From Cyanophora paradoxa CCMP329 (lineage: Eukaryota > Plantae > Glaucophyta), in contig QPMI01000601.1 of NCBI GenBank assembly GCA_004431415.1, positions 124,001 through 188,000 on the forward strand: a stretch of 64,000 bases of DNA, in the 5' to 3' direction. Shown one piece after another: positions 6,170-64,000 of the stretch. The position numbers were made by a program, and so were the translations under genes. The notes under the pieces were generated by a model. That model saw only the letters and a program-made list of their open reading frames with translations, was not told the DNA's origin and did not search any database. Numbering within the stretch: the stretch's first letter is position 1; the number at the start of each line of letters is the position of its first letter.

Positions 6170-8124
6170 CTCTATGCGAGCTCGAGATCCAAAGCCGGCA
6201 GCAGTGCGTACGCGGTGCTCGGCCTGGCGCCGGGAGAGGGCGGCGCGCTCCGCCGGCTCGAGGCTGGAGAAGGGGCCGACCCGGATCGGCATAGGCTCTC
6301 GCTTCGCTGGAGGGACAAACTGACCGAAGGCGCCGGCTCGTTAGTGAAGAAAATATTAATATTCAACTTCGAATTCGATATTTTCTTACGACTACGAACC
6401 GGAATGCACAAATCAACCCAGTGACATTTACAGGGATACAGATTACGAACGAAATCGTAATCGCCCCCTGTGCACCTTTCGGAAGGGGCGTAGCATTTCA
6501 GATAAACTCCAGCTGCTGAGAAGCATCGCACAATTTCGAGGGACTGTAATGACTCCGATGACGTCGAAAAAACGGATTTCTTTTGTACTGCGCAACCCGT
6601 CTCGAAAAGGCAATTCACAAACTGCGCACGAATTCAAGTGGATTGCGATTTGCTTCAGCGTCAATCTAATGTTTGATCATGACAGTTCTAGAATTCGAAC
6701 AAATACGCGCCCGTGCTCTTGCGGCGCCCTCGAAAATGACGCAGAAGTCCTTGCGCAAGAAGTGCACATTGTGAAACTGCGAGTCTATCAACCGTCCGAG
6801 GGCGATGACCTGCCAGGCCCCTCCCGGAGTCCTCCCCCCCTCCCCTCCCCCCCCTCCCCCCTAGGTCGATCGCGATTAGCCGGTCGAGGGCGATGGCCCG
6901 GCCCGGCCCCTCCGATCGTTAATTATCATGGAGCTAATAAGCGGCTTTAATTTCCAAGTTCACTTCAGCTACTAGCATTAGAAGTAATATTGTCTAACAG
7001 AAGGCGCACCTCAGGAAGGGCGTTGATTGCTGGAATTGTGACAGGCTTCGGATAATCGTCTCGATCTCCATGTATTCCTACTCGAAGTTCGACGTGACGA
7101 AAGAGGATGCGATCCATCGGATGGCATTCGAAGAACGAAACTGCAATGCGTAAAATGAGTAGGCTATTTGTACACAATTTCCAACGAGACGTTCTCGATT
7201 CAGGTTGCTATTGCGAAGTGGAATCGTCTTGCAATGGCACGTGCACGGACCGCCGTGACCATTGTCTTCGTTTCGAATGCACGTGTTCTCAAGAACGAAG
7301 TCCGCCCCAGCGCACTTGCTGACCGCGATGCTATCGACGCTGCACTCCTGGACGGCGATCGAGCCGCCTTTGCACCAGCCGGAGAGCTCGATGCCGCCCC
7401 GGACGTCGAGCCCGCGGACGAGCAGAGCGTGGGGACCCCCGGCGAAGTCCATGCATATGATGGGTTCTCGCTTCTCACGCCTGCGGTTGGTATCTTGCTC
7501 CTTACGCTTGAACGAGCCGAGCATCAGGGCCACATCAAGGCCATCCCCAACGATGGCGAGGTCCCCGGAGCAGTGCACGCGGAGGGGGCGCTCCTCGACG
7601 TAGTTTCCTGCCGGCGCGCCCGCGCGTCAGCTGCAGCCGCTGCGCAGGCGCACGCAGGCGCGCTAGCGCTGACGTCGACGCTCGCATGTGCGGCCACGGG
7701 CCGGGCCGGCCGCTCACGGCCGCGCAGGTGCCCCACGCGCCGGCGACTCTATAGCTATGCCACGGCCAGCTGCAGCTGGCCAAGGCTGGGCCGGCCGCGG
7801 GCGCGCGGCCGCGCGCCCTGAAACGCTCGCGGAGCGGAGCGTGCGCGCGAGCGCACCGGGGCGGACGACGACGGTGCCCGTGCCGCCGACTGCCGCGACG
7901 GCCTCACTGATGAGGCGGAAGGTCGAGGGGCCGGCCGCCACCTCCCGGAAGTCGACGAAGACGACCGGCTGCGGCCAGGCCGGCAGGGACGCCTCGTCGG
8001 CGACCGGGTGGGCGATCGGCGGCAGCCTCGTCAGCGGCGTCTGCCAGGTCGGCGCGTCCGCGCCGCCCGCTGCAGTAACTGCCGCGGCGGTTTCGCTGCC
8101 GGCACCGCTGATGATCATCGTCAC
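6170..8124 (-). CDS. Right-handed beta-helix protein, paralogue 2, multi-exon
   Basis: Near-identical blocks to paralogue 1 (e.g. 7845-8100 vs 5540-5795; 7245-7450 vs 5030-5240; 6222-6291 vs 4086-4152). Confidence 0.5.
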
Positions 8125-8397: not shown

Positions 8398-10844
8398 CAT
8401 CCGCCGCGCCGCCCCCCAGTCTCCACCGGCGGCACCCTCCCTACCCTCGACTCCCCACCATCCTCCCCAACCATCCAGCCCTCCCGCGCTCCCCAACTGT
8501 GCTTGAGTCTCCCCCGCCCGCCCCGAAGGGCCCGCCACCCCCCCCTCCCGGCGCCCGCTATGCCCAAGAACTCGCCTCTCAGCTCGCCGACCTGGCTCGC
8601 AACGAAGCCTCCGCCACAGCGCGCCGTCTCTTCCGGCCGTCCACGTTACCCCACTCGAAGCGGCGTCCATCCTAACTGAAGCCGCTCACCGTGAAGCCAC
8701 CCTGCCGCAACCACGGTCCGCCAAAACATCCAAAACAGCCGCACAGAAAGAGCGGCCCGCACCCGGCTAAGAATCGTATCCCGAACCCAGCCTACACCCC
8801 TGACAACCGCCACAATGACGCCGTTGACAAGCTTGCTAAAACAGCCCCGACGCCCCCTCTCCGCCCTTCTTTTCATTCCCCACAGTTTCAAATGCTTCCT
8901 CATCCGTGTTGGCCTCCCGCCCCACTATCCCACGGCCCAGTCCCCGGGGCCGAGCCCTACCGAGGCAGACTCCATGCGTACCGCGTCGAGGGGGACCCCC
9001 GCTCTCACTTCCTAGCCGAAGCCTCCCTCTCCCAATACCTCGACTGGCGCCAGCTTCGCAACGCGGGGGCCGTCCTCAGCAACCCCCATGTTACCCTTGC
9101 TCCAGCCCTCTCCCTAGTGTCCGACAAGCCACCGGACCGCCGCACCCCCACAGGCGACACCTCCGCAAAGTCAGATTCCAATGCATGCTTGGAAGCCTTC
9201 CCTCCCTCACCATCCGCCTTCTCCACGACCCGACCTCTACGGCCCTCTCTTCCCCGACGGCACCGCCCACTGCCCCTTCTGTCACCTCCCTCCCACCCTG
9301 CCCCATCCCCGAAGATGCTGCTTCCCCACCCTCCCCCTCCCCGCCCCTGCCACATGCACCCCCCGGGCTCCCCTCGCCTCTTCCCACCGGCGGCCGCAGA
9401 CCCCAGACCGCCCGACCCACAACCCACCCCCCCGAAGACTTCGTCCACATATTTACTTGCCCCGCCGCTCGCCTCCTTCTCCAAGCTCTCCAGGACGCAC
9501 TCGTGACCTTCCTCCGTACCCGGGTTCTCCGCCACTCGCCCAAACCACTAGGACACGACGATACCATCTTTCAACTCTTCCCCTTCCTCCGCCTCGTTTC
9601 TCCTGACCCCGCCTCTCCCCTCCAATCCGCCCTCCTCTCCCCCACCGAAAACCCGGCCCTTTTCCGCCCCCCAGGTCTCACCGATACCCTATGGACAAAG
9701 CTTAGCCCGGCCTTGGCTGACATGCTCCCCTTCCCCGCCCCTGCCCTCCTGCGCCTCGGCACCCCGGCAGGATTGCCCGCCCTCTGCACAGCTCTGGGCA
9801 TCAACAAAACCACCACAATGTCAATCCAAAAAGACCTAGCGTTGCTCCTCGACCAACACCTCCGTGCGATCTGGAGAGACCGCTGCGCCCGCAACCATGC
9901 CTGGGAGCTCCGACACGGCATCAATGACAGAACCAAACGTCGGTACCGCAAACATGCAGACTCCAAACCCTCCCGCTCGCCTCTAGTGCAGCCGCCCAGT
10001 CCCCCCCTCCCCCCGCCCTCCCCCCGCCCCTCCCTCCATGATACCATCTCCATCACCGACTTCTGCTGCGAATTGGGCTCGGAAGGCCAACCATGGATTC
10101 TCTTGGAAAACTTCCGCCAAGCAATTGCACGACTCCCCGTCGCCCCCTCACCCCAGGCCCCCCCTCCCCCAGCTGCCCGATGCAGGACCCGCCGCCGGGA
10201 CGTCTGACTTCTCCTGCACCTGCGGCACTCGGTTCGCCTCTGCATCTGCCCTCCAGGCCACTCCGACGCCAGACGGGGAAAATGCCCCGCCCGCCCTGAG
10301 ATCACCTCCTGCCCTGCCTCCCCACCTGCGGTACCCCCAGCACGACAGTCACACGAGAACTCCGACACTGGCATCCTGCCCGCTTCGCCCGCGGTCCTAC
10401 GAACACTACCCAACCTTCCAAACGCCCCGCTCCGGGCCCCCCTGGCCCTCCCCGAAACGAACACGCCCGTCGCCTGCCTCACGTAAACGGACAGCCGATA
10501 CCCCCTCCGCCCCGGCACCCAAATGCCCGCGCCCCGCGACCCCTCCCCTCCCGCCCCTACACCCGCCCCGCCCGTACCTACGGCGAAAAGAAAGGCAACC
10601 GGCCGCAAGACTCCCAGGCGCATGACCAAAAAAGCGCGAACGGTGCCGATACCCACGGGGCAACCCACAATCACGTCCCTCTTTGCACCCGGAGTGTACA
10701 AACCACTTACGACGCTGCAAGCAGCCAACTCCCCCTCCCCCCCCTTGCTTCAGCTGTCCCCCCCGCTCGGGACCTCGCAAGACGCCGCCCCTCAGCCCCC
10801 TACGGTCTCCCCGGCCCCAACCGGCCCTCAAGTGCCAGACCCCC

Positions 10845-47879: not shown

Positions 47880-49071
47880 GCCGCGCGACGCGCCCCCGGG
47901 ACCACACTCGCCAGCCCCCTCCTCGTCTGCTGCAGCTGCTGGCCGCCGGCGTCGGCTCGCTGCTCGGCGCTCAGTTGCCGGCGGCGGCGCGGCGGCTGTG
48001 GGGGAGACGAGCGCACCAGCAGTGGTCCAGCACTATATTACTGCGGCCGCAGTGCGGCGCCAGCTGCCTCTGACTCACCACCGGTACGGCGGTACGCCGG
48101 TACCGCGGCCGCGCGGGCGTGCGACGCACGCGGCACGCCGACGCTTAAGCTTTGATCGACGTGATGAACCGTGAACGCCGGCGCAAGCTATACTCCCTCC
48201 ATCACGCGGCTTCGCGCGCCGGCTGATGAGCACGGCTCATCATGATCATGCTCATCATGATATCGATCAAGATCTAGATTCTAGAGCCGCTGAGCGCACT
48301 TGTGCCACGGTGAATCGTCGGTGATCATGATCGTGAAGCAGCTAGCGCGCGCGCTAGCTAGCGCTGGCTACTAGTGGCCGCGGCTAGCGCGCGGAGCGCC
48401 GCCGCTGCGCCGGAGGCCCGGAGCTCGAGCCCGGCGGCCTAGCGCTAGCGCTAGCGTCGACGTCGACGTCGACGTCGACGTCGACGCCCCCGCGGCCTAG
48501 GGTGGAACTTTTTTTGGGAGAGGGTACAGTAGTGCTGCCGGTTCGACGAAAATATAATCTGTCGGTTCGGTGACCTCTAGATCTGCATATGCTGACTCCG
48601 TGAGTGACGTCGACGTCGACGGCGATGGCGACATGCGCATGCGCATGCGCATGCAGGCTGATGCAGCATGCAGCATGCTCGATCGAGGGATCCGGATTCC
48701 GCGGAGACTCGAAGTGTCCGCTTCAAATTCGAGATCTAGAGGTGCACGTACGTGACGAATCACTGACGATGGGGCCACAGAATTATTGATAGATCGATAT
48801 CGAGCTTTATATATATATAACTTGTGCGTTTGCATGCGCAATATTGATATCACATTTAATAAATTAAGCTCTCTCAATTATATATAAACGCTATATAGCG
48901 CTAGCGCTATAAATTGGATATTAAATTAAGTTTTAAGGATCTCTATTGCACAAGAATTCGCGTGTTCACTGCATGATTGTGCGCACGACGCCGCACGTGC
49001 ATGCAACGGTGCAAGTTTTGCTTTTTCGTTTCTCCTGACAAAAACACTGCAAAGAAATAGTGGACCAGTGG

Positions 49072-49591
49072 CAGTGATGGAATTAATAATAAACCCCAAA
49101 AAGGGACTTTATAAGAATGATTATTAATAGTTAATAATTAGTTATTAGTAGATTAATAAATACTTCCTCATAGAAGCGCGAAACCACGCGTTGAAGGAGC
49201 GCTGCGGCACGTTTCTGGTGCTAAACACTCTTATATAAGCTGCTTTAGCATTGCGAGTGCCCTCTATATCTGTTGGGGATCGAATAAAAGGGTTAAAGTG
49301 CGACCAAGGGGGTACTGGATGGTCTGAGCTGCCGTCTGATCAGCTTATGAGCGTCATATCAAGCTGCAGAAGTGCCCAGAAGGTCTCTAGACGTGCATAG
49401 AACTGCTTTATATCGCTCTAGCATGCACAGATTCGTCATAGAGTGCAAGAAATGGTGTATCTATGGGTACCCCCCTAAACTAATAAACGTTATTAATAAG
49501 AATGGCGGTTCTGGGACCTTATTAATAACGTATTATTAATTAGTTATTAATTAGCTAATAAAAAAGGTTATGAATAAAGTTCCCATCACTG
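49072..49591. mobile_element. hAT-type MITE (520 bp)
   Basis: TIRs CAGTGATGG(G)AA...TTCCCATCACTG. 8-bp TSD ACCAGTGG at 49064-49071 and 49592-49599. Subterminal TTATTAATA repeats. Confidence 0.85.
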
Positions 49592-49614
49592 ACCAGTGGA
49601 CCAATTAGCTATTG

Positions 49615-50037
49615 TTTTTTGGTGAATTACCGGCCAGCTGCAGTGGGCCGTGGGCCGTGGCCCGTGGGCCGTGGCCACAGTCTCTACTACGACTCTCTAG
49701 ACACCAGCAGGTCCAGCACTGCGGGGGCTGCCCAAGGGGCATAAAGACAAAAAAGCAAAATAACTAAGACAATAGAGCACGAAGAAAGACAAGACAAAGA
49801 GCCAAAATCGACAATAAAAAAGAAAAGACACAGAGACAGATCGAGAAGCCTTTTTTTTGGTGAATTACCGGCCACCGTGGCACAGCCTCTAGTCTACTCC
49901 AGCACTTTGATTCCAGGCTTTGAAGAGACGACTCGGCGATATATCATATATAAGCGAACCAGTCCGAGCAAATCTAGTGAGAGAGGATGACAGACAGGAA
50001 GAAGAGCTAGCTTTAGCTAAATAGAGCTAGAGATCTA
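49615..50037 (-). mobile_element. Two decayed 3' ends of a poly(A)-tailed retroelement family (tails at ~49615 and ~49851)
   Basis: Poly-T followed by GGTGAATTACCGGCCA twice. The same 3' end is found undegraded at 51555-51612. Confidence 0.65.
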
Positions 50038-50275
50038 GATACGATTAGGGCTGGGTCCAGTGAGATCAGTGGAGGGTCGAGGGTCTCACTCCACTCACTG
50101 AGTGAGGATTTTGGCTCACTCGTACAAAGCAAAATGTATGGGGCGAGTGAGCCGGACCTCAGCCCGCGCCGCGCGGGGGGGTATCTGGCGCCATAAAATC
50201 ACGACCCAGGCGCCCCACCTAACGATTTGGGGGTACTTTTGAGTCAGATCTACATGCATATGCGTGTAGCGTAGC

Positions 50276-50563
50276 ACATGACATATGCGCATTACACCCA
50301 AATTTTAGCGCCTTTTATTTACGACATTCAGTAACAACTTTACGATTCCCGACAATCGGAAAATATCACCACCCAATAAACCCATTTAATCGAGAGATTC
50401 CCGATGAAACCTACAACAATCGAGAGATTCCCGACAATTCACCATCGGACAATCGATGAAATACCCATTTAATCGATTGAATCCATAAAAAACAACAACC
50501 ACTAAACCATTCACAGTTACACCCGTTACACTTCCACATCTCCGATTGATTCACATTACACCC
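50276..50563 (+). repeat. Left terminal inverted repeat of PLV (288 bp)
   Basis: Base-by-base reverse complement of 62841-63128. Starts ACATGACATATGCG. Internal AATCGAGAGATTCCCGA repeats. Confidence 0.97.
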
Positions 50564-50564
50564 A

Positions 50565-50888
50565 TCACATTCGCATAAATTGCATCCAAGTAGCAGGATT
50601 AGCAATACTTACGTCTGATTCGGAAGACATACCTTTTTGGTAATTATAACAGAATTCACAAAGTAGTCCCTGAGACATTGGTTTGAGTTTTTCAGTATCT
50701 CCACAAATCATACAACAGTTTCGGGTTCCCATTCGTTCATACATAGCATTTGCTTTTGCCTGTTGTGAATGTGTTAATTTCAATTCGCCGACGTTTTCAT
50801 TTACCATAGAAACAACCGGACGTCCACTTTTAGCGCCGACGTATTCAGTCATATTACGATGTCGTTCACTTGCTTTTCTCTTACCCAT
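50565..50888 (-). CDS. Small PLV protein with CxxC..CxxC zinc finger (107 aa)
   Basis: CCMICGD...LCEFCY. Upstream CAAAATTTGAC motif on the minus strand. Confidence 0.75.
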   Translation of the reverse strand: MGKRKASERHRNMTEYVGAKSGRPVVSMVNENVGELKLTHSQQAKANAMYERMGTRNCCMICGDTEKLKPMSQGLLCEFCYNYQKGMSSESDVSIANPATWMQFMRM

Positions 50889-50942
50889 CGTTATTACTAC
50901 TTCTCAGATTCCTTTTAAACTTTGTCAAATTTTGCCCCGATG

Positions 50943-50954
50943 CAAAAAATGACG
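50943..50954 (+). promoter_or_regulatory. Putative viral early promoter motif CAAAAAATGACG (also at 51498, 57100, 57616; variant at 50924-50934 on minus strand)
   Basis: The motif lies 26-92 nt upstream of each non-structural gene, usually followed by an ACTTAAA box. Confidence 0.65.
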
Positions 50955-50994
50955 CTTTAAAACTTAAAACTTTACAACGATACACTTGTAATCA

Positions 50995-51507
50995 ATGGCG
51001 ACCAAACGAACCGCGGACATTCTGTGTTATAACATGGACTTCTTACCTAATTCAAATAGTGTTTACGCTGATTTTTTCGGAGATAATCTAACTGATGAAT
51101 CTATTTCGATTATATTTGGTGTATACAAGTGTTTGCATCAATTCCAAGGTGTAACATCAGATATGCTACACAAATGCTTCCTTACCAATAGACTCGATGA
51201 ATTGATTCATAAAAGAAATAAAAATAATCCATCGGGCTATTTCAAGAAGTTGAAAGAAAAAGGAATTATTATAGGAAAAACTTGTTTTTCAGAGCAGCAA
51301 GACATACCTAAATTCGAAATACTTGATGACAGTTATTGTATTAATTGTGGGCATGCAGATTATCTAACAGAAAATCACCCACGATTCACAGCGCCACCTG
51401 ATTGTTATGTTTGTTGTGAATTTCTTTGTAAAAAGTGCGCATACTACGACAAACAAAAGTATTCATTCGTGCATTTCAAATGTAGCCCAAAAATGGGCAA
51501 AAAATGA
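50995..51507 (+). CDS. PLV protein with C-terminal Cys-rich zinc finger (170 aa)
   Basis: CINCGH...CYVCCEFLCKKC...HFKC. Confidence 0.75.
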   Translation: MATKRTADILCYNMDFLPNSNSVYADFFGDNLTDESISIIFGVYKCLHQFQGVTSDMLHKCFLTNRLDELIHKRNKNNPSGYFKKLKEKGIIIGKTCFSEQQDIPKFEILDDSYCINCGHADYLTENHPRFTAPPDCYVCCEFLCKKCAYYDKQKYSFVHFKCSPKMGKK

Positions 51508-51535
51508 TGTCCCAAAAAAATAACAATTAAAAACA

Positions 51536-52011
51536 ATGGATTACTACGGAGTTTTTTTTTTTTTTTTTTTGGTGAATTACCGGCCACAGTCTCTAGACAC
51601 CAGCACTGCGGGGTTTACATGTTGGATATTGAAAATCCGGAATTACATAAAGATCTTCTCGAAAACAACGGGGCTGAATGGGATCCGGACACAAAATTAT
51701 GGTTTGTCGAAGACGAAAATAACGAACTTTTAAAACAATTCCGTGTAAAACATCCGGGTGAATTCGACCAAGATTACGTTAAACAATTCCACCGCCAGTA
51801 TTTCGTGGCTGATATCAAAGCAAGACTACCGGAGATTGCGGCAAAGCGTATATTTACTCAGTCATCATTACGCAAATATATTAAAAAACAAGGCGCTACA
51901 TACGATCCTCAGTATCGTTTATGGTATGTTACTGATCCTGAAAGTGAGATATGCAAGATCTTTAAGATGTTCACACTCGAACAGGTAGAAGATCTGAGAA
52001 GACCAAATTAA
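51536..52011 (+). CDS. Tandem DUF5710-like protein; original start 51536 frameshifted by a retro-insert, in-frame ATG at 51619 retains 130 aa
   Basis: Two GAxWDPxxKLW(F/Y)V-type repeats (GAEWDPDTKLWFV, GATYDPQYRLWYV). Removing the 62-bp insert gives MDYYGVY-MLDIENPEL. Confidence 0.75.
51555..51612 (-). mobile_element. Extremely 5'-truncated poly(A)-tailed retro-insertion
   Basis: Poly-T plus GGTGAATTACCGGCCACAGTCTCTAGACACCAGCACTGCGGG, flanked by GTTT duplication (51551-54, 51613-16). Homologous to host copies at 49621 and 49859. Confidence 0.8.
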
Positions 52012-52760
52012 ACCGTAATCGTCGTGGGTTCATTACTAATTCTTATCGATTCTCTCTTTTTTATCGCTCGTCTCTTAACAAACTTGCGAAACGCTTTCAT
52101 GTCATCATCTGTTATTATTGCACGGTCTGTGTATACTTTGATGTCATAACCTTGTAACCCAGTTATAACGGTCTGATAATTGTAACCCCAAAGTCTATGT
52201 AGTTCTTTGTAAGTCTTCTTGTCCAATCCACCGTTATATTCATCGAATGCACAGTTAAACTCTTTCTCATTTCCTAAAATGTTAAAGAATACCACAAATT
52301 CCACATTACGACGAATGGTAGTAGAAATAGAACATATACGTTGGACATTGAAAATAACGGTTATACCATAATGTCTTCCGCTCGTTACCAGTTTGGATAA
52401 CACAGCCGAATTATGCATATCCAAATTAGAACCTATCATGTCATCTAAAATTATTACCAAACTATTACGCTTCTCATTGTTTTCGATTCGTTTCTTTTGC
52501 ATACTAATTAGTTTCACTACCACATTATCATCCCATTCCTCATAGATGTTACCAGGATGCGTTATATCTTTGAATTGACCGGTAAACGCAGTGGAACTAA
52601 ATACTACAATCTGATCGATCTTATCGCGCAGTTCATAAAGTAGATATTTACAATACGTTGTCTTACCAGAATTGGAGCGCCCGGCAAGCAAAAAACGCGA
52701 AGGTAATTTAGCAGTTTTAACCGGGTCGAATTCGGGAATATCATTTAAATCTATATCCAT
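52008..52760 (-). CDS. A32-like (FtsK/HerA) genome packaging ATPase
   Basis: Walker A GRSNSGKT, Walker B LVIILDD, GRHYGITVIFNVQ (arginine finger/Q motif), IRRN. Confidence 0.93.
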   Translation of the reverse strand: MDIDLNDIPEFDPVKTAKLPSRFLLAGRSNSGKTTYCKYLLYELRDKIDQIVVFSSTAFTGQFKDITHPGNIYEEWDDNVVVKLISMQKKRIENNEKRNSLVIILDDMIGSNLDMHNSAVLSKLVTSGRHYGITVIFNVQRICSISTTIRRNVEFVVFFNILGNEKEFNCAFDEYNGGLDKKTYKELHRLWGYNYQTVITGLQGYDIKVYTDRAIITDDDMKAFRKFVKRRAIKKRESIRISNEPTTITV

Positions 52761-52888
52761 TACTGTGTGTCCGTTACAGTAATAAGATAAAAAACAAAAT
52801 CATGCGCTAACCTATACGCAATTTGCAGGCTTCCTACTTTAAAGAAAGAAAAAAGAATCGTCAGACAAGCCGACTCGGCGGCGCCCTT

Positions 52889-55109
52889 TTAAAAGTTGGA
52901 AACTTTCAGTGTCGAAATGTTATAGCCATTGAGAACCATGACATTGTGACGGAGCGCGTAAATATCCACCTGAACCGGCGCCTCATCGGTGCAACCAGAA
53001 ACTACAAGATCCATGTAAGAACTTGAAGAATTGAAGAAGTCTTGATAACCCATGACCGAATTATGGAGAGAATCCTTACCGCTCTTGCTTAGGACAACAC
53101 CATAAACACATCCATCCTCAAAACCAAGATCAGAATTGCCCACAGTGCATCCCTTGTAGTGAGACGGGATATGGTTTACAGCAGACAGGAAACCGCCAAT
53201 AGGTTTGTTTGAGATTTCAAGCGATCGGTTGTTATGGAAAATTTGGAACTGTTCAATTTTCACATTGGAATAGTAACCAGAAAGAGTCGAATGTGTGTAT
53301 TTATCAAGCTCATTGGTTTCACGAACAGTCATAAGAATTGAATGAACCAGACCGGAAACACTCGCAAGTGTAACCTCGACATTTTGCCCATCATCCGCCG
53401 CTTTAAGCGCTCGGGTCTTCTTGTGGATCACTTCCGTAATCGGGATGCGAATACCTCCTTGTTCATTCGCCGTCTTTAAGAGGTTCTCAGCTTCCGCAGA
53501 AGCAATATTAACGAATTGACAGATTAGCGCGCAATCACCCATAGTGACATTTCCACCAGCAGGAACCAAAACTACTGAATTCTCCGACGCTCACGGCAGC
53601 TGAACGGCAGGCGCAGATGTGCGTGCTACGGGGGCTGCCCCCGGCGGGCCTCACCGATATGATTCGCGAGACCGTCACGGACGCCAAGAAAGCTGCCCAG
53701 GTCGTGCGCAAGCTGACGACGGCCATAGGCGAGCAGGCCCATAAAACGTGGGCCGCCAGATGCCAGGCGTACGCGGAGTGGGAGAAGGCGTGCGGGATCA
53801 CGAAGGTCATGAAAGAACGTCGCGCCAAGGCGAAGCGCACTGAGGCGCGCGGGCGCGAGGCCGACGCGCCGCCTGACGATACGGCTGGCAACGCTCGCAG
53901 GAAGCGCGCGGATCCGGAGCCCCGGCAGCGGGAACGCTGCAGGGAGTGCGGTGCCCTCGAGTCCCGCCACCAAGGCGGGGAAACCCTAGCCCTCTCACAC
54001 CTGAGCTGCCCGCCAGACGACTACGGCTGGGTCCGGGCTTCAGCGGCCATGCAAGTATACGACCATACGAACAGGTATGCTTGGGGCGTGGGCACACAGA
54101 GGGCGCGCCCGCGCTAGAGGGAGACACTGGGGGATTGCGGTCTGGGGGCGGGGCCGGAGGACGCAACACCAACAAATGGAGGCGGCGGAGGCGACGGCAG
54201 GAGGCGGCCAGTAGCCCAATCTACTGGGGCTGGCGAGGAGCCTGGCACACGGCGCGGCGAGGCCCTTGGGCAGCGCTGGCGGCGGACATACCATGATTGG
54301 GAGTCTTTTGTAGAGATAGGACCTCGTAGCCGGGAGTTTAGGTTGGTTTAGAAATCGATACAGCTAGCTTCCACATCATTAGTATTAGTTAGAAACCTCC
54401 TTAGCTAGATATCTAGACACGAAACCTTCAAACCTTTCGTTCATTTTGTACTTTCTAAAGCACAGCATACGACGGTCCTCGATAGTATCTAGTCGGAGAG
54501 ATTTATTGGGCGATGTGAAACTCATTGTAGTTGTGTTGTGTGCTAATGCAAGAGATTTTCCAAAACTACTGAATTCTCGCGAAAATCTACCTCGATAGTG
54601 GGCATGTCCGCAAGAACGCAAAGGGGGAAATATGCATCATCCCAGAATTGGGCAGGAATCTTAATGATATATTCCGTAGATTCGTCAGTGCTAAGGCGAC
54701 TAATTTCACGGAAATATCCAAGAGAAGCGCGCATAGTAGCCATGGTTGCTGTGTCATTGTCTACCAGAGCATTAACAGTGATCCAATCGCCAGGGATGAT
54801 ATACTTAAACCCACCGTGGACAAAACGAACCTCTTTAATGTAAGAAGCGCCACCATTGGGAAGAGTGCAAGCAACACCACCACCGGTAGTAACCTTAAAG
54901 TAAAGTGAAACGCCACTTAGTAGTTGCTTGCGTGGTAGATCAAAATAAGCGGTCGTTTTGAAACCGAAAGTATTACCACGTGGGCGAACCTGTTCAAGGA
55001 ACGGCTTATATTTGGGGTTGGTTCCGATTTGGAGACCGGGAGATAGATAAATTTGATCCGATCCGGGAGTAACGAGGAGTTCTTTAAGGGTCGTTCCAGT
55101 AAGCGCCAT
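52889..55109 (-). pseudogene. Major capsid protein (double jelly-roll, ~408 aa reconstructed) interrupted by a LINE fragment
   Basis: ORF 55109-54543 and ORF 53569-52889 join in frame (...DFRENSVVL|VPAGGNV...) once the insert and one 19-bp TSD copy are removed. Beta-rich, lies between ATPase and penton, PLV-MCP-like motifs (FDLPR, FPL). Confidence 0.8.
53585..54559 (+). mobile_element. 5'-truncated non-LTR retrotransposon (975 bp) with 19-bp TSD
   Basis: TSD CCAAAACTACTGAATTCTC at 53566-53584 and 54560-54578. GC-rich insert. ORF remnant TWAARC..AEWEKACGIT resembles the C-terminus of the element at 8.3-11.4 kb. Confidence 0.88.
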
Positions 55110-55161
55110 GTCTTATGTTTAAAATACGAAAAGAAATTTTTAAATTACATTATTAAACAGA

Positions 55162-56067
55162 ATGACGCGTTACTATCTTAATATTGATTCCCGGGATCGG
55201 GATGATGGAACCCCTACAAACTATTCTTATAAACTTCCCCATGCAATCCAAAATGTTAAAGCATGCCGTGTTACCAATTTCGAAATGTTTAATAACATTT
55301 ACAATCTCAGCGAAAACGGAGCGCTTGTAACATCCACACTCGATGGACAAGGAGTAACCAAAACGAAAAACAACGTGATTTCGAAAGGGACTTACACAGC
55401 GGATAGTTTGGTGAATTATCTAAATGCTCTTCTGATATCTCAGGTCTACGGTGCAGCAGGGACTACATACACCCGTCATTTCAATGTGTCTTATGATCCA
55501 ATAACAATGAAACTAAGGATTATTGGTGAAGTAGCATTTACCATACGTTTCGGTAGCATGATTTTAGCCAATTTCCTCGGTTTCCCGGATCCATCACTAA
55601 ATGGCTCGGCGGGTGTAGGTTATCCATCTACTCCTCTCGATTCACCACAGCAAGTAGGTGCTTATACTTATAATCACTATCTCGACAGTGTCATACCGCT
55701 CGACCTTCTGTTTAATTCTTACATCCTTCTACATGTCGATCCACTCAAAGGTAATTACGTAAGCAAGAATACCAGCGACGATAAAGCGTTAGCTAAAATT
55801 GAAATTGACCAGACGGTAGGTAGTCTCCTAAAATACGATTCTACCAATAACTCTATGATCATCCATGAGCAAAACGGATTAGTGGAAGTTGAGACGCTTA
55901 AAGTGCGTTTGACGTATTGGAATGGTAACGAAACGGACATTACCACGGATTGGTCAATGACTCTCGAACTGATCACCGAAGATGAAAAGGATCTTACGAA
56001 AGCAGCATTGAAAAACGTTATAAGGGATTTGGAAAATGTCTATTTACCGTTTGGTCGTAATATGTAA
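55162..56067 (+). CDS. Minor capsid protein (penton), 301 aa
   Basis: YLNIDSRDR...NYSYKL...IQNVK...NNIYNL and C-terminal LKVRLT..G....DWSMTLEL are typical of PLV pentons. Confidence 0.85.
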   Translation: MTRYYLNIDSRDRDDGTPTNYSYKLPHAIQNVKACRVTNFEMFNNIYNLSENGALVTSTLDGQGVTKTKNNVISKGTYTADSLVNYLNALLISQVYGAAGTTYTRHFNVSYDPITMKLRIIGEVAFTIRFGSMILANFLGFPDPSLNGSAGVGYPSTPLDSPQQVGAYTYNHYLDSVIPLDLLFNSYILLHVDPLKGNYVSKNTSDDKALAKIEIDQTVGSLLKYDSTNNSMIIHEQNGLVEVETLKVRLTYWNGNETDITTDWSMTLELITEDEKDLTKAALKNVIRDLENVYLPFGRNM

Positions 56068-56099
56068 TTTTGCGTTATATTTTTGTCTTGTTATTTCAA

Positions 56100-56876
56100 A
56101 TGGCTCGTAAGACACAACCCAAGAGCGGCTCGCAAGCGAGCCTTGGCTCGCGCCTTTTCTTAGCGAAACCCGTCGAACAAGCGGAACCGGAACGGAAGCA
56201 TTACAAGAAATCGAAAGGAACCGCAGCATACGGAACCGCTGATATCGAAAAGAATATTAATAATACGATTAATTCCAGTGCTGTGGCGCCAGTAGACGAC
56301 ATTAACGATGGTAACGCCTTAGTTGAGCAAGTGCCGCTAAACCGTATGCCGGGTGCAAAGCGTGGGATTAAGAAAGGACAATTTAAGAGCGCGACAATCG
56401 ATAAGGTCGATAAAAAGTCGACTCTTCTTAAACTCCTCGATGGTGGCGAGCGTCTGTATTCCACATATTCGGAAAAAGACCACCGTAACCGTTACTTTAT
56501 CAGAGCAACTACCGGTGGACTGAAAACGATCACATACAAACACGCTAAAAGTCTCATTGAGGGAATCGCCGATGAGACGCAGAAAGAGAAGAAGATAACG
56601 GAGCAACCGATAACCAAAGAGAAGGTAGACAAGAAACCCGATGTTACGTTTGATGTCCTTCCCGATCCAATCAAAGAGGAGAAACACACACCGACGGAAT
56701 TAATCGCTAAGACGATCGATTACCAAGAATCCAATAAAACGGATTTGCCGGTGTTAAATAAATCAATCTTGCGGGTTGCTACATCGCAATCTGACCCGCT
56801 TAACTCCATTCCCAATGCGGCGCCGATGCTTTCCGGATTCGCTAAATTGGGTCTCCGTCCGGGTTACAGGCGTTAA
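56100..56876 (+). CDS. Lys-rich PLV hypothetical protein (258 aa), possible virion core protein
   Basis: Intact ORF from ATG 56100, directly after the penton gene, basic composition. Confidence 0.7.
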   Translation: MARKTQPKSGSQASLGSRLFLAKPVEQAEPERKHYKKSKGTAAYGTADIEKNINNTINSSAVAPVDDINDGNALVEQVPLNRMPGAKRGIKKGQFKSATIDKVDKKSTLLKLLDGGERLYSTYSEKDHRNRYFIRATTGGLKTITYKHAKSLIEGIADETQKEKKITEQPITKEKVDKKPDVTFDVLPDPIKEEKHTPTELIAKTIDYQESNKTDLPVLNKSILRVATSQSDPLNSIPNAAPMLSGFAKLGLRPGYRR

Positions 56877-57203
56877 GCATCATTCTTACGTTAAAATTTT
56901 CTTTTCAAAGAATAGCGTTAAACATCCATCTCCGAATTTTAGCGCTCACGTTTACTTATTTTTATAAGTGGCGTTGTAGAGAAGTTGTGATATCCATGTA
57001 TCACGCTTTTTAATCACCTGTTCTACGGGGTTCATTCGTAGAATCGAGGAAGCGAAGACTTTCGGCTTATTTTTCCGGCATCTTCTTATTATCGATGCGC
57101 AAAAAATGACGGCGTTTTAAAAAACTGATCGACATGTTATATACACGATAAGAAAAGGACTTAAAGATTTCTTGCTATATATCAGAAGAGGAACAGCAAG
57201 AGA

Positions 57204-57458
57204 ATGCCGCTAAGCGAATCTCAGAAACGCGCGATTTATCGCTACCGCAGCACAGAAAAGGGTATGTTAGCGCTTGCGCGATTCAATGAAAAGCGCAATG
57301 TTAAGTGGAGTGAATTGTATAATAACGATGACGCATTTAGACAGAAACACATAGCAACGTCATGCAAGGCGCAGTATGTAAATAACACGATTCTATACAT
57401 TAAGTATCTATTCGACGTCCCGCGAACTAATCGGGGTCGCCCATCAATTCATTGTTAA
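57204..57458 (+). CDS. Small basic putative DNA-binding protein (84 aa)
   Basis: MPLSESQKRAIYRYR N-terminus of a type common in PLV/virophage small proteins. Preceded by the shared promoter motif. Confidence 0.7.
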   Translation: MPLSESQKRAIYRYRSTEKGMLALARFNEKRNVKWSELYNNDDAFRQKHIATSCKAQYVNNTILYIKYLFDVPRTNRGRPSIHC

Positions 57459-57688
57459 TCCTTTTTTCCCGGCGCGATCGCTGAGGAAGACAGGCGCAAC
57501 CGCGCTTAAAACAATACACTGTTTGAGTTATTTTTAAGACCATCGAATGGTGGTCGACCCTTTTGTTATTTTTATTAAACCCTCAAAGCGGATTTTGTGG
57601 ATTTTGCGGTGTCGCCAAAAAATGACGCAATGTATGAAAAGCACTTAAAGAAATAAAATATAGTGTATATAATAAGAACGCCTATAAG

Positions 57689-60600
57689 ATGTTTTCATTT
57701 GCAACAGTGAAGAATATCATCGGATCTGTGGTAGAGTCCATTAGCAATCTACCCGGTATTCGCAGCATCCCGTTTATCGGTAATGCAATTAAGCGAATCG
57801 CTAATGATCGTTTCGAAAGAGTCGTAAAGGAACTCGAAGCAAGGAAGAGTGAGAAGAAGGAGAAGACTAAGGAGGAAATCCGCGAAGAGCGGAAGAAGCG
57901 CAAGCAGGAGAAGAAGGAGAAGCGCGCACTGAGAACGATTAAGAACATTCAGAAGCAAGAAGGGAAGAAGTTCAAGGGAAAGGTAAGGCGTCTCATTCGT
58001 CGTATTGAAGCAGAAAATGGCGAAACTGTTTCGGTTCATGTAAGATTCTATACACTTCCCGATGATATCGATAATCTACCACAGGGCTATGATGTTATCT
58101 TACACAAAGACACGCCTTACGTTGAGACACAGAAGAGCGGAAAGAGGGCATTAATTATGACTTGCCCGAAAGACGTATTGATTGCAAGACTTACCGAAGT
58201 CGAAGACGAATTTAATAACTTTCTTGCCGTTTGGTCGCTCGATACTATCGCCGCTTTCCTTCTTAATATCGCTGATCGTAACGCAAATAACAGGGATTAC
58301 AATTATGTGCGAATTTTCGCTTACCCACAACTCCGTGAGTCTCCTATTTCATATCCCGATGTTATGACAATTGAGGAAATTGTAGTAAGTGACAATACCA
58401 CTGTATACCCTCTGAATGAAAGAGCGCTTAGAGACGGAGAGGCGCCTAAGATCGTTTCGCGTTTCATCAAATATTCACTTAATGGTGGCGCAAAATCTGT
58501 ATTGGATCAGATTAAACCCGATGGGTCACTTATCATCAAGGATTGCTTAATAGAGGCGCTACATCAGGTCATTGTGAAATCTTTCGAATATGCCCACAGT
58601 ATCAGCAAATACAAGAAGGTTAAGTATTCGAAGGAATGGCTTTATGAGCAGATCAAAGGACACGCGCCTACTGACACATCCGATTGGGGGACGTCCTTTA
58701 ACGAAATACTACCATTCTTGCAAAAGTGGCGCATCCGCTTTATCGCAATCGGAAAAGACGACAAGGTTATACATTCTCTGTGTTACAAACCTACCCGGAC
58801 AAATTCACACCTTGTCCCGGCAAGCGTTTACGTTCAGATCTCTAACGATCACGTGTATGTGTTGAATAAAGACCTTAGTAAACTTGTGCGATCTTTCAAT
58901 GGAACAGCGGCGCGCGAAACAAAAGCGGTGGGTTCATCGTCGTTAAAATACAAGATCAAAACACAGTTTAACGATATCAGCTATCCGGCATACTCTGAGG
59001 AAGAAATAGTGGAGATTGTTAAACGTGAGAAGGAAAACGCAACCTCAAAAATCACGATCACTTACAGTAAACCGTTATTCGAATTGTTGGGAAGTTTCAG
59101 AAGAGCAAACCACGAAGTTAACGCGACTATTTCCGATGAAGGTATAGTTAGCTACATCCATTACAAGATCGAAGACAAAGATGTAGTTATACTACCGCCA
59201 GGCAATATGGTGAATATGGATGATGTCGACGTTAACCTTAGGGATGAAGAACACCGAAAACTCTTTAACGAAATGTCGCAGATGCTAAACCGTGCGCTCA
59301 TTAACAAACATGTTAAGAGCAAATACAACCCGGAGACATTCGCCGCATTCACGAAAGGACAACAGAGCGCATTAAATGGGTTTTTCGTGACTTCTAACGC
59401 TGAATTGCGGGAATTGTTTGAAGGTGTTATGTGTGGCGCGATCGATACGTATAAATTGGATATCTCCAAAGCATACACACATATCGTATCGAAACTCATC
59501 AAAAACTTCCCGGTTTTCAGCTCATTCGATCGATTCGAAAAGGTTGTGGTAACGTGTAGCGATGATATCGAAGCGGACGCCTTCTATTCAGTGAAAGTAA
59601 GAGCGAAACACTTTACGGTAAATCGTAAAGACCAATTGATTAACAACATGTCGCCATACAAACGTATCCTTGTAGACTCAAAATACAACCTTCTGTATGG
59701 TGGCGTGTTGAAAGAGTTCTACGATGACATCCGCGACGACGTGATTATAGAAGCAGTGGTAAGACCATACCGGGTTGTTAAAAACGTCACATTGCAGGCT
59801 TTCAAGCAGTTGTTTGCGTCTAACCTTTCGATCAAGGAAAAGAAGGATATCAGTAATCACAATATCGGGAAGTTTGGTAAGAAATCCCAGCAAAAAGTGC
59901 AAACAACGATATTCTTTAACAAGAACGACGCGCTTAACTTTGTCCGAGAGAACGGCGGTAAACTGAGATCGCTAAATTTCGATTCAAAGAAGCCGAAGCG
60001 GACGACTGTAAGGAATGAGGCAAAGACGGAGACACCGATGTTATGGTATGTAAACCAGCTCGGAGAAGAGAAGACGCTTATAGATGGTTTCCTACCTATC
60101 CAGTGTCAGATTTACAGTATCATGCGTGGGGTCATGTATAAACTGTCTAAGGATCTATTGGCTAATGGTGTTGGAGTTCTACGCATCAGAACCGATGAGT
60201 TTCTTATAGACAAGCCATACCCATTTGAGCCGTTTGACCGCGACCTTTTCGAAAACACCGGAAAGTATGACGTGAAACCGTTTAATGTTACTCCGATTAT
60301 ATCACAGGAGTCAAAGAAGAAGCGGAATAATGCTAATGGGTGGATCACATTCGACAGACTGAGACAACGCGACGAGAGGTTTATTACGGTCGAGAAGGTG
60401 AATCATAAGGTGTTCAAGTTTAAGGATGAATACAACGTGGAAGCCATCGTGAATGCTATGGACGGAAAGGGTAACGTGATTATTCGCGGTGTCAAACCCG
60501 GGACAGGTAAGACCACGTTAGCGAAGGCGATGACACGGAAGTATGGTAAAAACTGTCTTTTCATTGCGCCGACTAACATTCGATGCAAGCAGCTACGCAT

Positions 60601-61786
60601 GGAATTGAAAAAGGAGTGGAGCGAAGTTGACATGGTCGATGTGAAGACTATCTACAAGTCACTACATCTGAATATCGACCCCGAGAAGATGAATGACAAC
60701 GTAGGTAAACAGGTTACCGATTTATCCAAGTATCAATGCTTTGTAATCGATGAGGTTTACCAGTTCCAGATTCGCGAATTGGAGGCGTTGAGAGACATTA
60801 TGACTATCCATTTTCCGGATAAGTTATACATCGTTACGGGTGACCCATTCCAGATTCCACCGATTCAATTTATCGATATCGACCATCGCGACTACTACAA
60901 CAAGATCTTTGACCGGTTGTTTAAGAATGAGGTTTACCTACAAGTCGGAAAGCGACACAAAGACCCCGAAGATCAGGTTAAAATAGATCAATTGAAACAT
61001 GATCTATTCGTTACAAAAATGCGTGTTCCGGAGGCAGCGGCGCGGTTGGGTCTTGCAGTTGTGAATGAAATGGAAAAAGGCGACATTTCCATAGTTCAAT
61101 CTAACCGCAAGTCCGCGCAAGTGAATAATGAAATGCACAGGATGCTTTACGGTGTTGACATGGTTTATAAGGAAGGCGTGCATTTGATTGCAAAGTATCA
61201 AATCACAACAAATGAGGGTATCATTTATCGCGGATTTGAATATGAAGTAATCAAATACGAACCCGAAAAGGTTCTTACGCTAAAAGACATCGACAGCGAA
61301 GAAATCTATAATGCGAAGCCCGAAGACATCAAATATTTCGCATTATCTCATGGTTTCACTTGTTACAGCATTCAGGGCGACACTATCAGAGATAAACGCG
61401 TAGTTGTCTATCAGTCGACCTCGCCATACATGACCGCTGAGAGTTTCTATGTTGCAGTGACGCGAACCGAAAGACTTTCTGACACTGTAATTTTCGTAGA
61501 TGAGGACGAGAGACGGAGAGTTGGTATGGAGAAGGCAGAGTTTGCCGTTAAAATCAGATCACACAAGGCAGAAGACAAGAAGTGTAACCGTGAGTTTGAC
61601 GCAGCAGATTACGTCGATTGGGAATGGAAGGGTTACCGCTTTGGTAAGCAGCATGGACGCTGTGGAAGGTGTGGCGATATTATGGATCCGGAAGATGCAA
61701 CAGTAGACCGTTACAACAACGCAATCGCCCACATTAAGCCGAACTGTTTCTTATCTCATAATAGGTGTAATTGTGCAGCGCAGTAA
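57689..61786 (+). CDS. Replication polyprotein: basic N-terminus, vOTU-like domain, derived protein-primed PolB, SF1 (Pif1/RecD-like) helicase, HNH-like finger (1365 aa)
   Basis: DCLIEAL...NDHVY. LDISKAY / KDISNHNIGKFGK / IRTDE. GTGKT, VIDE, GDPFQIPP, SIQGDT, YVAVTR. CGRCG..TVDR.NN..AH.K.NC..SH.RCN. Confidence 0.88.
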   Translation: MFSFATVKNIIGSVVESISNLPGIRSIPFIGNAIKRIANDRFERVVKELEARKSEKKEKTKEEIREERKKRKQEKKEKRALRTIKNIQKQEGKKFKGKVRRLIRRIEAENGETVSVHVRFYTLPDDIDNLPQGYDVILHKDTPYVETQKSGKRALIMTCPKDVLIARLTEVEDEFNNFLAVWSLDTIAAFLLNIADRNANNRDYNYVRIFAYPQLRESPISYPDVMTIEEIVVSDNTTVYPLNERALRDGEAPKIVSRFIKYSLNGGAKSVLDQIKPDGSLIIKDCLIEALHQVIVKSFEYAHSISKYKKVKYSKEWLYEQIKGHAPTDTSDWGTSFNEILPFLQKWRIRFIAIGKDDKVIHSLCYKPTRTNSHLVPASVYVQISNDHVYVLNKDLSKLVRSFNGTAARETKAVGSSSLKYKIKTQFNDISYPAYSEEEIVEIVKREKENATSKITITYSKPLFELLGSFRRANHEVNATISDEGIVSYIHYKIEDKDVVILPPGNMVNMDDVDVNLRDEEHRKLFNEMSQMLNRALINKHVKSKYNPETFAAFTKGQQSALNGFFVTSNAELRELFEGVMCGAIDTYKLDISKAYTHIVSKLIKNFPVFSSFDRFEKVVVTCSDDIEADAFYSVKVRAKHFTVNRKDQLINNMSPYKRILVDSKYNLLYGGVLKEFYDDIRDDVIIEAVVRPYRVVKNVTLQAFKQLFASNLSIKEKKDISNHNIGKFGKKSQQKVQTTIFFNKNDALNFVRENGGKLRSLNFDSKKPKRTTVRNEAKTETPMLWYVNQLGEEKTLIDGFLPIQCQIYSIMRGVMYKLSKDLLANGVGVLRIRTDEFLIDKPYPFEPFDRDLFENTGKYDVKPFNVTPIISQESKKKRNNANGWITFDRLRQRDERFITVEKVNHKVFKFKDEYNVEAIVNAMDGKGNVIIRGVKPGTGKTTLAKAMTRKYGKNCLFIAPTNIRCKQLRMELKKEWSEVDMVDVKTIYKSLHLNIDPEKMNDNVGKQVTDLSKYQCFVIDEVYQFQIRELEALRDIMTIHFPDKLYIVTGDPFQIPPIQFIDIDHRDYYNKIFDRLFKNEVYLQVGKRHKDPEDQVKIDQLKHDLFVTKMRVPEAAARLGLAVVNEMEKGDISIVQSNRKSAQVNNEMHRMLYGVDMVYKEGVHLIAKYQITTNEGIIYRGFEYEVIKYEPEKVLTLKDIDSEEIYNAKPEDIKYFALSHGFTCYSIQGDTIRDKRVVVYQSTSPYMTAESFYVAVTRTERLSDTVIFVDEDERRRVGMEKAEFAVKIRSHKAEDKKCNREFDAADYVDWEWKGYRFGKQHGRCGRCGDIMDPEDATVDRYNNAIAHIKPNCFLSHNRCNCAAQ

Positions 61787-62853
61787 TGGATAACATATTA
61801 TCTTACAAGAAATACCGCCAGAAGTTGATAAACGATAAAGTGACATTTGATGAAGCAGAATTAAAGAAACGTTTTATAAATTCCGAAGTGCATCAGATAT
61901 TCAAGAAACCAAAGAAACCAAAGACATTTCTAAGAATTGTTGCTATGCCTTATTCCTTTCAGGTGGACATAATGAATTTTAAAGGATATCAAACCGCGAA
62001 TAATGGGATTTACAAGATGATAAGTTTTATTGATATATTGAGTCGGAAGGCTTTTGTGTATCCGTTTAAGAAAAATGAAGAAATCCGTAATATTTTGAAT
62101 AAGTTTAAGGTTGAGGCAGGTAAGGTTAATGGATTGGCGGGAGATCATGAGTTTAGCAGTGCGATGTATAAAGAATGGTGTGATGCTAACGGTGTGAGAT
62201 TATATACAGATGTGGCGAAAGATGACCATGTAACCGTTGGAAATAAGTTAGGAATTATTGACAGATTCACACGGACATTTAAGCAATATTTGAGGAAGGC
62301 GATGACATCAAAGGGAACCACAAAATGGATAGATTTAATAGGTGAAGTTCTTTCGATTTACAATGGTTCACCTCATAGTTCCTTAAAAGATGATTCACCC
62401 AATGCAGTATTTGCAAGTGATCAGAAACAGCTTTTTATACATCTACGTGATGTTGTGCATAACAAGCATGTGCAAGAGAAGGAAAAGAAGGATACAGTAA
62501 AACCGGGTGATACTGTGCGAGTGTTGGAAGGTAAAAAAAGTGCGTTTGAGAAAGAAGGCGCGCGATTCAGTCAGAAGGTCTATAAAGTCGGAAGATCTGA
62601 CGGGAATAGGTTTAAGGTGTTGGAGGATATGGACGGAGACGAGAAGGAGGTAAAGAGGCGCTTTAAGAAGCAAGAGTTACAGAAGGTGAGCGTGAAAGAT
62701 GTAATTAAGATACCGTCGCAAAAACGAATAGAACGAGTAAAAAAGGTAAATGCTGTGAATCAGAAGATGAAGAAGGAAGGGATTAAACCGAATCGAAAAG
62801 TAACCGTGAGGAAGAAGTATAATTTAAGAAGTAGTGCAAAGGGTGTAATGTGA
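61786..62853 (+). CDS. Retroviral-like (rve) integrase with SH3-like C-terminal domain (355 aa from ATG 61786)
   Basis: FQVDIM, FIDILSRKAFVYP, GDHEF, GIIDRFTRTFK, W.DLI......YN..PHSSL..SP, VKPGDTVRV. ATG overlaps the upstream stop (TAATG). Confidence 0.93.
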   Translation: MDNILSYKKYRQKLINDKVTFDEAELKKRFINSEVHQIFKKPKKPKTFLRIVAMPYSFQVDIMNFKGYQTANNGIYKMISFIDILSRKAFVYPFKKNEEIRNILNKFKVEAGKVNGLAGDHEFSSAMYKEWCDANGVRLYTDVAKDDHVTVGNKLGIIDRFTRTFKQYLRKAMTSKGTTKWIDLIGEVLSIYNGSPHSSLKDDSPNAVFASDQKQLFIHLRDVVHNKHVQEKEKKDTVKPGDTVRVLEGKKSAFEKEGARFSQKVYKVGRSDGNRFKVLEDMDGDEKEVKRRFKKQELQKVSVKDVIKIPSQKRIERVKKVNAVNQKMKKEGIKPNRKVTVRKKYNLRSSAKGVM

Positions 62854-63128
62854 ATCAATCGGAGATGTGGAAGTGTAACGGGTGTAACTGTGAATGGTTT
62901 AGTGGTTGTTGTTTTTTATGGATTCAATCGATTAAATGGGTATTTCATCGATTGTCCGATGGTGAATTGTCGGGAATCTCTCGATTGTTGTAGGTTTCAT
63001 CGGGAATCTCTCGATTAAATGGGTTTATTGGGTGGTGATATTTTCCGATTGTCGGGAATCGTAAAGTTGTTACTGAATGTCGTAAATAAAAGGCGCTAAA
63101 ATTTGGGTGTAATGCGCATATGTCATGT
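62841..63128 (-). repeat. Right terminal inverted repeat of PLV (288 bp)
   Basis: Exact reverse complement of 50276-50563. Confidence 0.97.
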
Positions 63129-64000
63129 GTAGCGCTAGCAGCACCGCGCGCGATGCTGACCATGACCAATCTGAAATTCGAAACGACCTCTCAGAGTCTC
63201 GACATTTTAGAAGCCCGCGGAAACAGCTGGCAGTTACGGCGCGTAGCGCCTGAAAACACGGCGAAATCTGGGTCGTTTTAGGTCGTTTTTCGCGTATACG
63301 AAAACGTACCCCCTGCTCACTACAGTGACTGAGTGAGTGGGACGCAAAAAGCTCACTCACAAAGTGAGCCCGCGGACCTCACTGGGCGCAGCCCTAGATA
63401 CGATCAACATCTGACTCAGTGAGGGAATTCGAAGCACATGTCCATCACTAACAAGCGCAGGACAGAACTGATCATGAACAAGATAAATCACAGGAAGCAG
63501 ACAGGTAAGCGGAACAACAAGACGACGTCGACGTGCACGTGGAGGCTGAGGCGAAACTTTTGAAACAGGCCTAGGACGATGCGAATCGAAAGGGCAGAAT
63601 TCGAACTACGGCACGAGCGCGAGGAGGACACAGAAGACGGATCAGGCGGATCAAGAGCAGGCCAGGCCTAGATCAAAGGAATCACTAAAGCCGGTCGGGG
63701 TCGACGTCGAGGCGGGCAGTCACGTTGCACACTGAGTCGAACTGCAAACGACGGCGAACGCGAACGACGTCGACAGGTCGAATACGAGGACTAGCGCTGG
63801 AATGAATTCTATAGCTAGCTATAGCATCAACACGTGCACTACGATCAGAATCCGAACCAGACCGAACTAAACTACAAGACGGAGAACTCGGAACGCCGGC
63901 GCCGGCGTCGGCGGGATACCGTAGTACGACCAGCGAAGCAGAATTCGAAGATGAAGCCAGCTGCAGATCTAGATCATAGGCGGCAGCTCGCGATCGGTAC

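Follow-up and report, generated by a model that had tools for sequence, protein, structure and literature searches.

Endogenous Polinton-like viruses of Cyanophora paradoxa are already published, as are retroelements that disrupt viruses of this kind. The C. paradoxa set comprises 366 Polinton-like virus capsid genes that fall into two clusters of 272 and 94 (PMC10120064, PMC12220804), and the repeats and viral genes of this species are methylated and mostly silent (PMC12344493). In cryptophyte Polinton-like viruses, nested GC-rich elements encoding reverse transcriptase interrupt viral genes, which is expected to leave the virus inactive, and the possibility of supply in trans is considered (PMC12220804), and a Ty3/Gypsy element has been reported within a Polinton-like virus (PMC10120064). 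Ngaro retrotransposons occupy 20 sites in the endogenous virophages of Cafeteria, 7 of the 20 in genes (PMC8547959). LINEs and DNA transposons embedded in the Polinton-like viruses and virophages of Halocafeteria are read as viral decay (bioRxiv 10.64898/2026.07.28.741278).

The locus described here lies in a window of 64,000 nt, the whole stretch of DNA that was analysed. We consider it very likely that the probable major capsid gene in one copy of an endogenous Polinton-like virus has been broken by a 5′-truncated piece of a host non-LTR retrotransposon, which lies between the two copies of a 19-nt duplication. The cause is likely a recent target-primed insertion that would leave this copy without a capsid of its own, while uninterrupted versions are present in public DNA data of the same organism. 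Among named proteins, those closest to the capsid gene and to the insert come from C. paradoxa, the species of the published endogenous Polinton-like viruses, and the host is probably this glaucophyte or a close relative. The locus resembles the cryptophyte nested elements in that a GC-rich retroelement breaks a viral gene, but those elements are 4–9.5 kb long, carry direct repeats of hundreds of bases and involve integrase and fibre genes, whereas here a 975-nt LINE end lies in the capsid gene (PMC12220804). With the Cafeteria case it shares a host retrotransposon in an otherwise unbroken AT-rich endogenous virus; that case differs in that Ngaro are tyrosine-recombinase elements, the viruses are virophages, and the seven genes listed exclude the major capsid gene (PMC8547959). 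The Halocafeteria insertions are mostly MULEs (16 events), with no capsid-gene case in the text covered (bioRxiv 10.64898/2026.07.28.741278). No report of a LINE within the capsid gene of such a virus was found in the literature searched, including PMC8502044 and bioRxiv 10.64898/2026.06.19.733378; supplements were covered in part, and a case may already be in print.

The surrounding Polinton-like virus

The viral element spans positions 50276..63128 (12,853 nt including the insert) and forms an AT-richer island, with a GC of 0.41 outside the insert, in host DNA whose GC is mostly 0.65–0.80. Its terminal inverted repeats lie at 50276..50563 on the plus strand, with 297 nt at 99% and 293 of 299 positions matching, and at 62841..63128 on the minus strand, where about 290 nt pair with the left repeat. 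A 5-nt repeat flanks the element at 50271..50275 (plus strand), with its second copy at 63129–63133, and is the sole symmetric candidate of 12 listed. This repeat is likely the target duplication of the integrase, since 5 nt at symmetric ends fits the 5–6 nt expected of an rve integrase; the flank is repetitive, so it could also have arisen by chance. AT-richer, repeat-like DNA with short motifs common to both sides adjoins the virus at 49000–50270 and 63130–63500, and is perhaps the end of an older transposon.

Several genes place the element among the Polinton-like viruses, where we file it rather than with Polintons/Mavericks in the strict sense. An A32-like packaging ATPase of 250 aa is encoded at 52008..52760 on the minus strand (Pox_A32, E 3.4e-14, above the cut-off), next to a 130-aa viral ORF at 51619–52011 that holds two DUF5710 stretches (E 7.6e-9). 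A 301-aa ORF at 55162..56067 (plus strand) is a minor capsid candidate by size and position only, and has no Pfam or PHROG match. A gene at 61786..62853 on the plus strand encodes a likely rve-like integrase of 355 aa, for which the rve match (E 0.073) lies below the cut-off and the acidic motifs were recognized by eye. No match to a maturation protease was obtained among the ORFs of the element, several of which are unassigned. Apart from the split gene, nine ORFs are open.

Between these genes, at 57689..61786 on the plus strand, stands a replication protein of 1,365 aa with an SF1 helicase (AAA_19, AAA_30 and Viral_helicase1, all above the cut-off) that matches helicase chains (E 8e-4) and ends in a weak endonuclease VII-like match (E 0.03). 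Family B polymerase-like motifs precede the helicase; they were read by motifs, with no profile match. The third of these, motif C, presumably departs from the canonical form. A stand-alone protein-primed polymerase B is absent from the element, this one ORF with the SF1 helicase being the sole candidate. The arrangement is like that of the Tlr1-type polymerase–SF1 helicase fusion, which likewise joins a polymerase-like part with an altered motif 3, an SF1 helicase and a nuclease-like end (PMC5499653, PMC12721341), and whose polymerase part is predicted to be inactive (PMC5499653). It is unlike that fusion in having an rve-like gene as its partner and in that its polymerase part is recognized from motifs, not from a profile. 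The original prediction that the replication and integration genes stayed intact thus stands as far as open frames go, but the resemblance to a fusion with a predicted inactive polymerase part (PMC5499653) weighs against it for the replication protein.

The remainder of the window is host DNA. A Pfam search of 146 of the 241 long host frames returned ordinary eukaryotic domains, and host gene fragments at 17000–43000 include a VTT domain, radical SAM, mRNA capping enzyme, mTERF, the phospholipase C X domain and a C2 domain. Pieces of host genes at 5002–5796 and 7213–8101 are duplicated locally (241 nt at 91% and 259 nt at 98%). The AT-rich start of the window (331–803 and 1044–1326) contains a 181-nt direct repeat and 35-nt perfect inverted arms, together with a MITE-like 47-nt inverted pair around 189 nt.

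One viral gene in two halves

The likely major capsid gene is divided into a first half at 54579..55109 and a second half at 52889..53565, both on the minus strand. An exact 19-nt repeat in the capsid coding sequence stands at each junction, at 53566..53584 and 54560..54578 (plus strand), and is the only exact repeat of at least 10 nt common to both junction regions. The two copies, a target-site duplication, are separated by 975 nt (53585–54559). A comparison across the whole element reveals no second exact 19-nt direct repeat, and none of 300 triplet shuffles of the element core produced any direct repeat of that length. In the frames of both halves, the first base of the repeat is codon position 1, and removal of the insert with one repeat copy leaves 1,227 nt of coding sequence, or 408 codons plus stop. 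Neither half contains an internal stop when both reading frames are translated. The fusion in frame into a protein of about 408 aa, as originally predicted, is thereby borne out, with phase kept at the repeat.

In the present, interrupted sequence, the first ORF (54543–55109) encodes 188 aa, made up of 183 viral codons and 5 insert codons, and the second (52889–53542) encodes 217 aa from a start that is an internal Met, its frame being closed upstream by a stop at 53591–53593 within the insert. What would be annotated as two hypothetical ORFs is accordingly explained as one gene. Composition separates the gene from the insert. GC3 is 0.40 and 0.42 in the capsid halves, like that of other viral genes, versus 0.80 in the insert ORF. 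The predicted size of the insert and its perfect duplication are confirmed, but its description as GC-rich applies to the first 700 nt only (0.69), with 0.40 in the last 275 nt and 0.61 overall, against 0.41 for the virus.

Independent evidence for a single gene comes from a protein search. The first half, compared with 1.84 billion representatives, gave three matches, from which P0012 (456 aa, E 2.8e-4) was kept; its database entry names C. paradoxa as the source. Residues 11–187 of P0012 align with the first half (pairwise E 2e-12) and residues 252–448 with the second half (pairwise E 2e-11), although the second half was absent from the search query. Both halves therefore align in order to one protein, as expected of one gene, not two. 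P0012 is only 25% identical to the split gene and so represents a different family from this element. The remaining two matches were dropped as likely chance, P0011 being a cadherin-repeat protein and P0010 a protein of 5,280 aa with 14 matched stretches. Diverged sibling DNA also bridges the insertion site in runs X1 and X13, with a short side of 61 letters; a further bridge, from 53537 to 54582 in X1 and X3, has a short side of only 29 letters and was left uncounted. Sibling contigs thus run across the site, the opposite of what two separate genes would give. Other searches for relatives were negative. When longer proteins were searched for words shared with the first half, none of 680 candidates was retained. 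No relative was confirmed when viral contigs were scanned for the ATPase, the first half, the rve-like gene and P0012, or when the second half was used on metagenome contigs, and an exact look-up of window proteins in a protein collection returned none of seven.

The split gene is likely the major capsid gene, as the original prediction had it, an identity that draws on the cluster scores of the first half and on the fold comparison of the P0012 model. Scores of 0.97, 0.96 and 0.95 link the first half to clusters in which Phage_Capsid_P3_N (in 12% of the members) or Capsid_N (in 91% and 89%) occurs. The Capsid_N set makes up 22 of the 30 cluster matches of the first half, a result weakened by a recognition value of 1788, below the tool's 2300. 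The P0012 model, built from a three-row alignment, is poor (pLDDT 35), as is a single-sequence model of the second half (pLDDT 33). When the P0012 model is compared with 48,161 chains, the top five rows consist entirely of double jelly-roll chains from capsids or scaffolds, namely those of the poxvirus scaffold and of the EhV-201, PBCV-1, PRD1 and ASFV capsids. These rows have Z of 5.0–5.9 and rmsd of 4.5–4.9 over 130–154 residues, covering about residues 19–213 of a low-confidence model; a carbohydrate-binding module ties at Z 5.0, and no row reaches the threshold of 8. Foldseek with the same model gives no capsid at E ≤ 0.001, capsid rows appearing only above that value. Its sole match at E ≤ 0.001 is an F-box protein with a TM of 0.18, which was rejected, and none is in the PDB. 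Taken as a low-confidence model, P0012 supports the first jelly-roll barrel of a predicted double jelly-roll fold.

Sequence searches of Pfam, PHROGs and the PDB give no capsid match for the split gene, and the poor models do not resolve a second barrel, as would suit some other beta-rich virion protein. We regard that identity as very unlikely, since the scores of 0.95–0.97 with capsid N-terminal clusters (tempered by the low recognition value), the five top fold rows, the size of the gene and the A32 ATPase next door all favour a capsid protein.

The inserted retrotransposon

The insert (53585..54559, plus strand) is what remains, after 5′ truncation, of the 3′ part of a non-LTR retrotransposon; it runs antisense to the capsid gene and ends in four T. 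It carries the last 176 codons of a retrotransposon ORF at 53587..54117 (plus strand), which are 78–84% identical to the C-terminal ends of P0016, P0020 and P0025. These three proteins combine RVT_1, an RNase H match (below the cut-off in P0025) and the end of the insert's ORF in a single chain, and the longer gene models of the family likewise hold RVT_1 plus RNase H. Seven EukProt gene models match the insert ORF, and in the two that have a Pfam RNase H match, this domain and a stretch resembling a zinc knuckle lie upstream of it. One of the gene models agrees with the insert ORF at 100% identity across 55% of that ORF, and the insertion thus points to a LINE family that is young in this alga. 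All three PDB matches of the family's reverse transcriptase are R2 proteins, and all 32 cluster members listed for the insert family are named C. paradoxa.

Contigs of the family mark both ends of the insert, diverging from the window upstream of 53584 (X1, X3, X12, X13 and X15) and departing from it at 54551–54561 (X13 and X15). In X1, insert contigs reach depths of 1,654–2,821, versus 154–220 for zero-difference viral contigs. Contig depths were never taken as copy numbers, and this excess identifies a multi-copy family without giving its number. The proposal of a LINE insertion is upheld by a multi-copy non-LTR family with reverse transcriptase and RNase H, a 5′ truncation and a target duplication. 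Unlike in an L1-type LINE with a poly(A) tail, poly(A) is absent from the 3′ end, the longest A run in the last 30 nt being 2 and the longest T run 4, and no Pfam match to an APE or restriction-like endonuclease was found in 24 family-related gene models, whose N-terminal ends look incomplete. Named LINE clades that may be considered for the family are Dualen/RandI, Proto1 and L1 with RNase H.

An Ngaro/DIRS tyrosine-recombinase element was considered and rejected, as a 19-nt duplication is present and the insert ORF has no recombinase match. One gene model, P0003, ties the insert ORF to a tyrosine recombinase; because its isoform P0014 holds the recombinase alone, P0003 is probably a model whose predicted splicing runs on into an adjacent element at another locus. 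A second, diverged element end, at 8676–10207 of the window, shows an RNase H-like motif together with the W..RC..WE..GI pattern found in the insert family; it matches that family only at a pairwise E of 0.002, with no Pfam match and no tblastn match with the family proteins.

Variation within the family was also observed. In one variant of the family, 178 nt of the 3′ untranslated part (54234–54413) are missing and 7 other letters take their place (X1, X3 and X15). Summed contig depth is highest over the last 100 nt of the insert (54466–54602), at 10,058 in X1 and 4,990 in X15, as would be expected if short copies are numerous or if a SINE-like family has the same 3′ end. A 66-nt GT..AG stretch within the retrotransposon ORF (53951..54016, plus strand) is skipped in one X15 contig and in the gene model P0004; LINE transcripts may contain it as a cryptic intron. 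The 22 residues that this stretch encodes are conserved in related subfamilies.

Truncation together with a duplication of variable length is the mark of target-primed reverse transcription in LINEs. In the mechanism that we propose, the retroelement would have nicked the viral DNA, with reverse transcription primed from its own 3′ end and stopping after about 975 nt to leave the 19-nt duplication. The antisense insert would then end the first ORF after five codons, near the probable end of the first barrel, and the inserted copy would make no capsid protein of its own. We infer loss of capsid function because the stop falls five codons into the insert at that point in the fold. The inserted copy could be packaged by its siblings.

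Capsid protein could still be made if the insert were spliced out as an intron, and the host does splice short GC-rich introns. Forty GT..AG pairs lie near the junctions, 10 of which keep phase; both stops are bypassed by 4 of those, whose acceptors are all non-YAG. No pair is exact, and none of the 40 is a phase-keeping GT..YAG pair that avoids the stop. The insert is moreover antisense retrotransposon sequence, and an Rfam search gave no match at E ≤ 1. Rescue of the capsid gene by splicing is exceedingly unlikely. The 188-aa ORF, which has its own start, could in principle yield a lone barrel that joins and spoils sibling trimers, so that the insertion would have made a dominant-negative capsid fragment restraining the family. 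Such a role is highly improbable.

Uninterrupted versions of the site in public data

The status of the insertion was assessed in public sequencing runs. Among 24 runs listed, 14 hold 0.70–0.75 of the sampled words, and the left junction was compared in four, which come from three named studies and one run without a study; all could derive from a single strain, and the source of the window itself could be among them. In all four runs, a contig with zero differences over 53508–53584 enters the empty site. These contigs extend 11 letters past the repeat, identical to 54579–54589 and unique in the window, whereas the bridging rule used for sibling DNA needs 31 letters. Their depth compares with that of the neighbouring copy-specific contig as 164.8/156.8, 48.7/47.6, 132.2/139.9 and 8.6/7.3. 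Over 53574–53581, the entire depth comes from the single empty-site contig. No contig among those listed in the four runs (the best 32 of 79 pieces) crosses from virus to insert at the left junction, and the inserted allele therefore rests on the window. Rare variants are lost from contigs, and the left junction was covered more closely than the right. As to whether the insertion is fixed or polymorphic, the public contigs thus answer for the empty site in four of four runs, but do not supply the inserted form at the left junction. The simplest reading is that the insertion belongs to one copy among near-identical ones, or is a minority allele. Since the two repeat copies are identical to each other and to the empty site, the insertion appears to be young.

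The same results bear on whether the inserted allele is genuine. With the left junction in no listed contig of the four runs, and with multi-copy elements known to mis-assemble (PMC10120064), the insert might be a repeat joined into this copy by the assembler, or a rare molecule. We judge this improbable, as an exact 19-nt duplication at both ends and a clean 5′ truncation are not expected of a mis-join, and the right end of the insert falls where other family copies also end.

The original prediction further proposed that the inserted copy behaves as a capsid-less transposon or as a defective virus complemented in trans, in which case the insertion would mark a sub-lineage that kept moving. 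Such a history would suit the near-identical termini and the nine other open ORFs, as well as the many sibling variants (403 contigs aligned in X1), and trans supply has been raised, as unlikely, for related elements (PMC12220804). A lineage at several loci should nevertheless show the junction, and the public contigs examined reveal no second locus with the insertion; the presumably non-canonical motif C also speaks against continued movement. Tlr1-type fusions are, in addition, predicted to be inactive (PMC5499653). With the empty site assembled in every run compared and the left junction in none, a capsid-less lineage is distinctly unlikely, and one copy or a minority allele is the likely state of the insertion. 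Side by side with these data, a 5,413-nt contig of X15 matches 55085–56100 at about 90% and represents a sibling virus. This run is only guessed to be RNA, no RNA run being on record among the 24 listed, and X15 has no cover over much of the capsid gene, so it provides no evidence on expression.

The feature is real and was correctly seen, and it is an ordinary decay event. The presence of uninterrupted gene versions in public DNA makes it likely that one of many copies is simply decaying; no new mechanism is shown and the significance is modest. What the locus offers is a clean single-step example of host retrotransposons wearing down endogenous Polinton-like viruses, here with a likely capsid gene hit in what is likely a glaucophyte. 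The empty and filled sites together make a simple marker, with which one could look for continuing movement of the LINE in culture and for any copying of the capsid-null copy by helpers.
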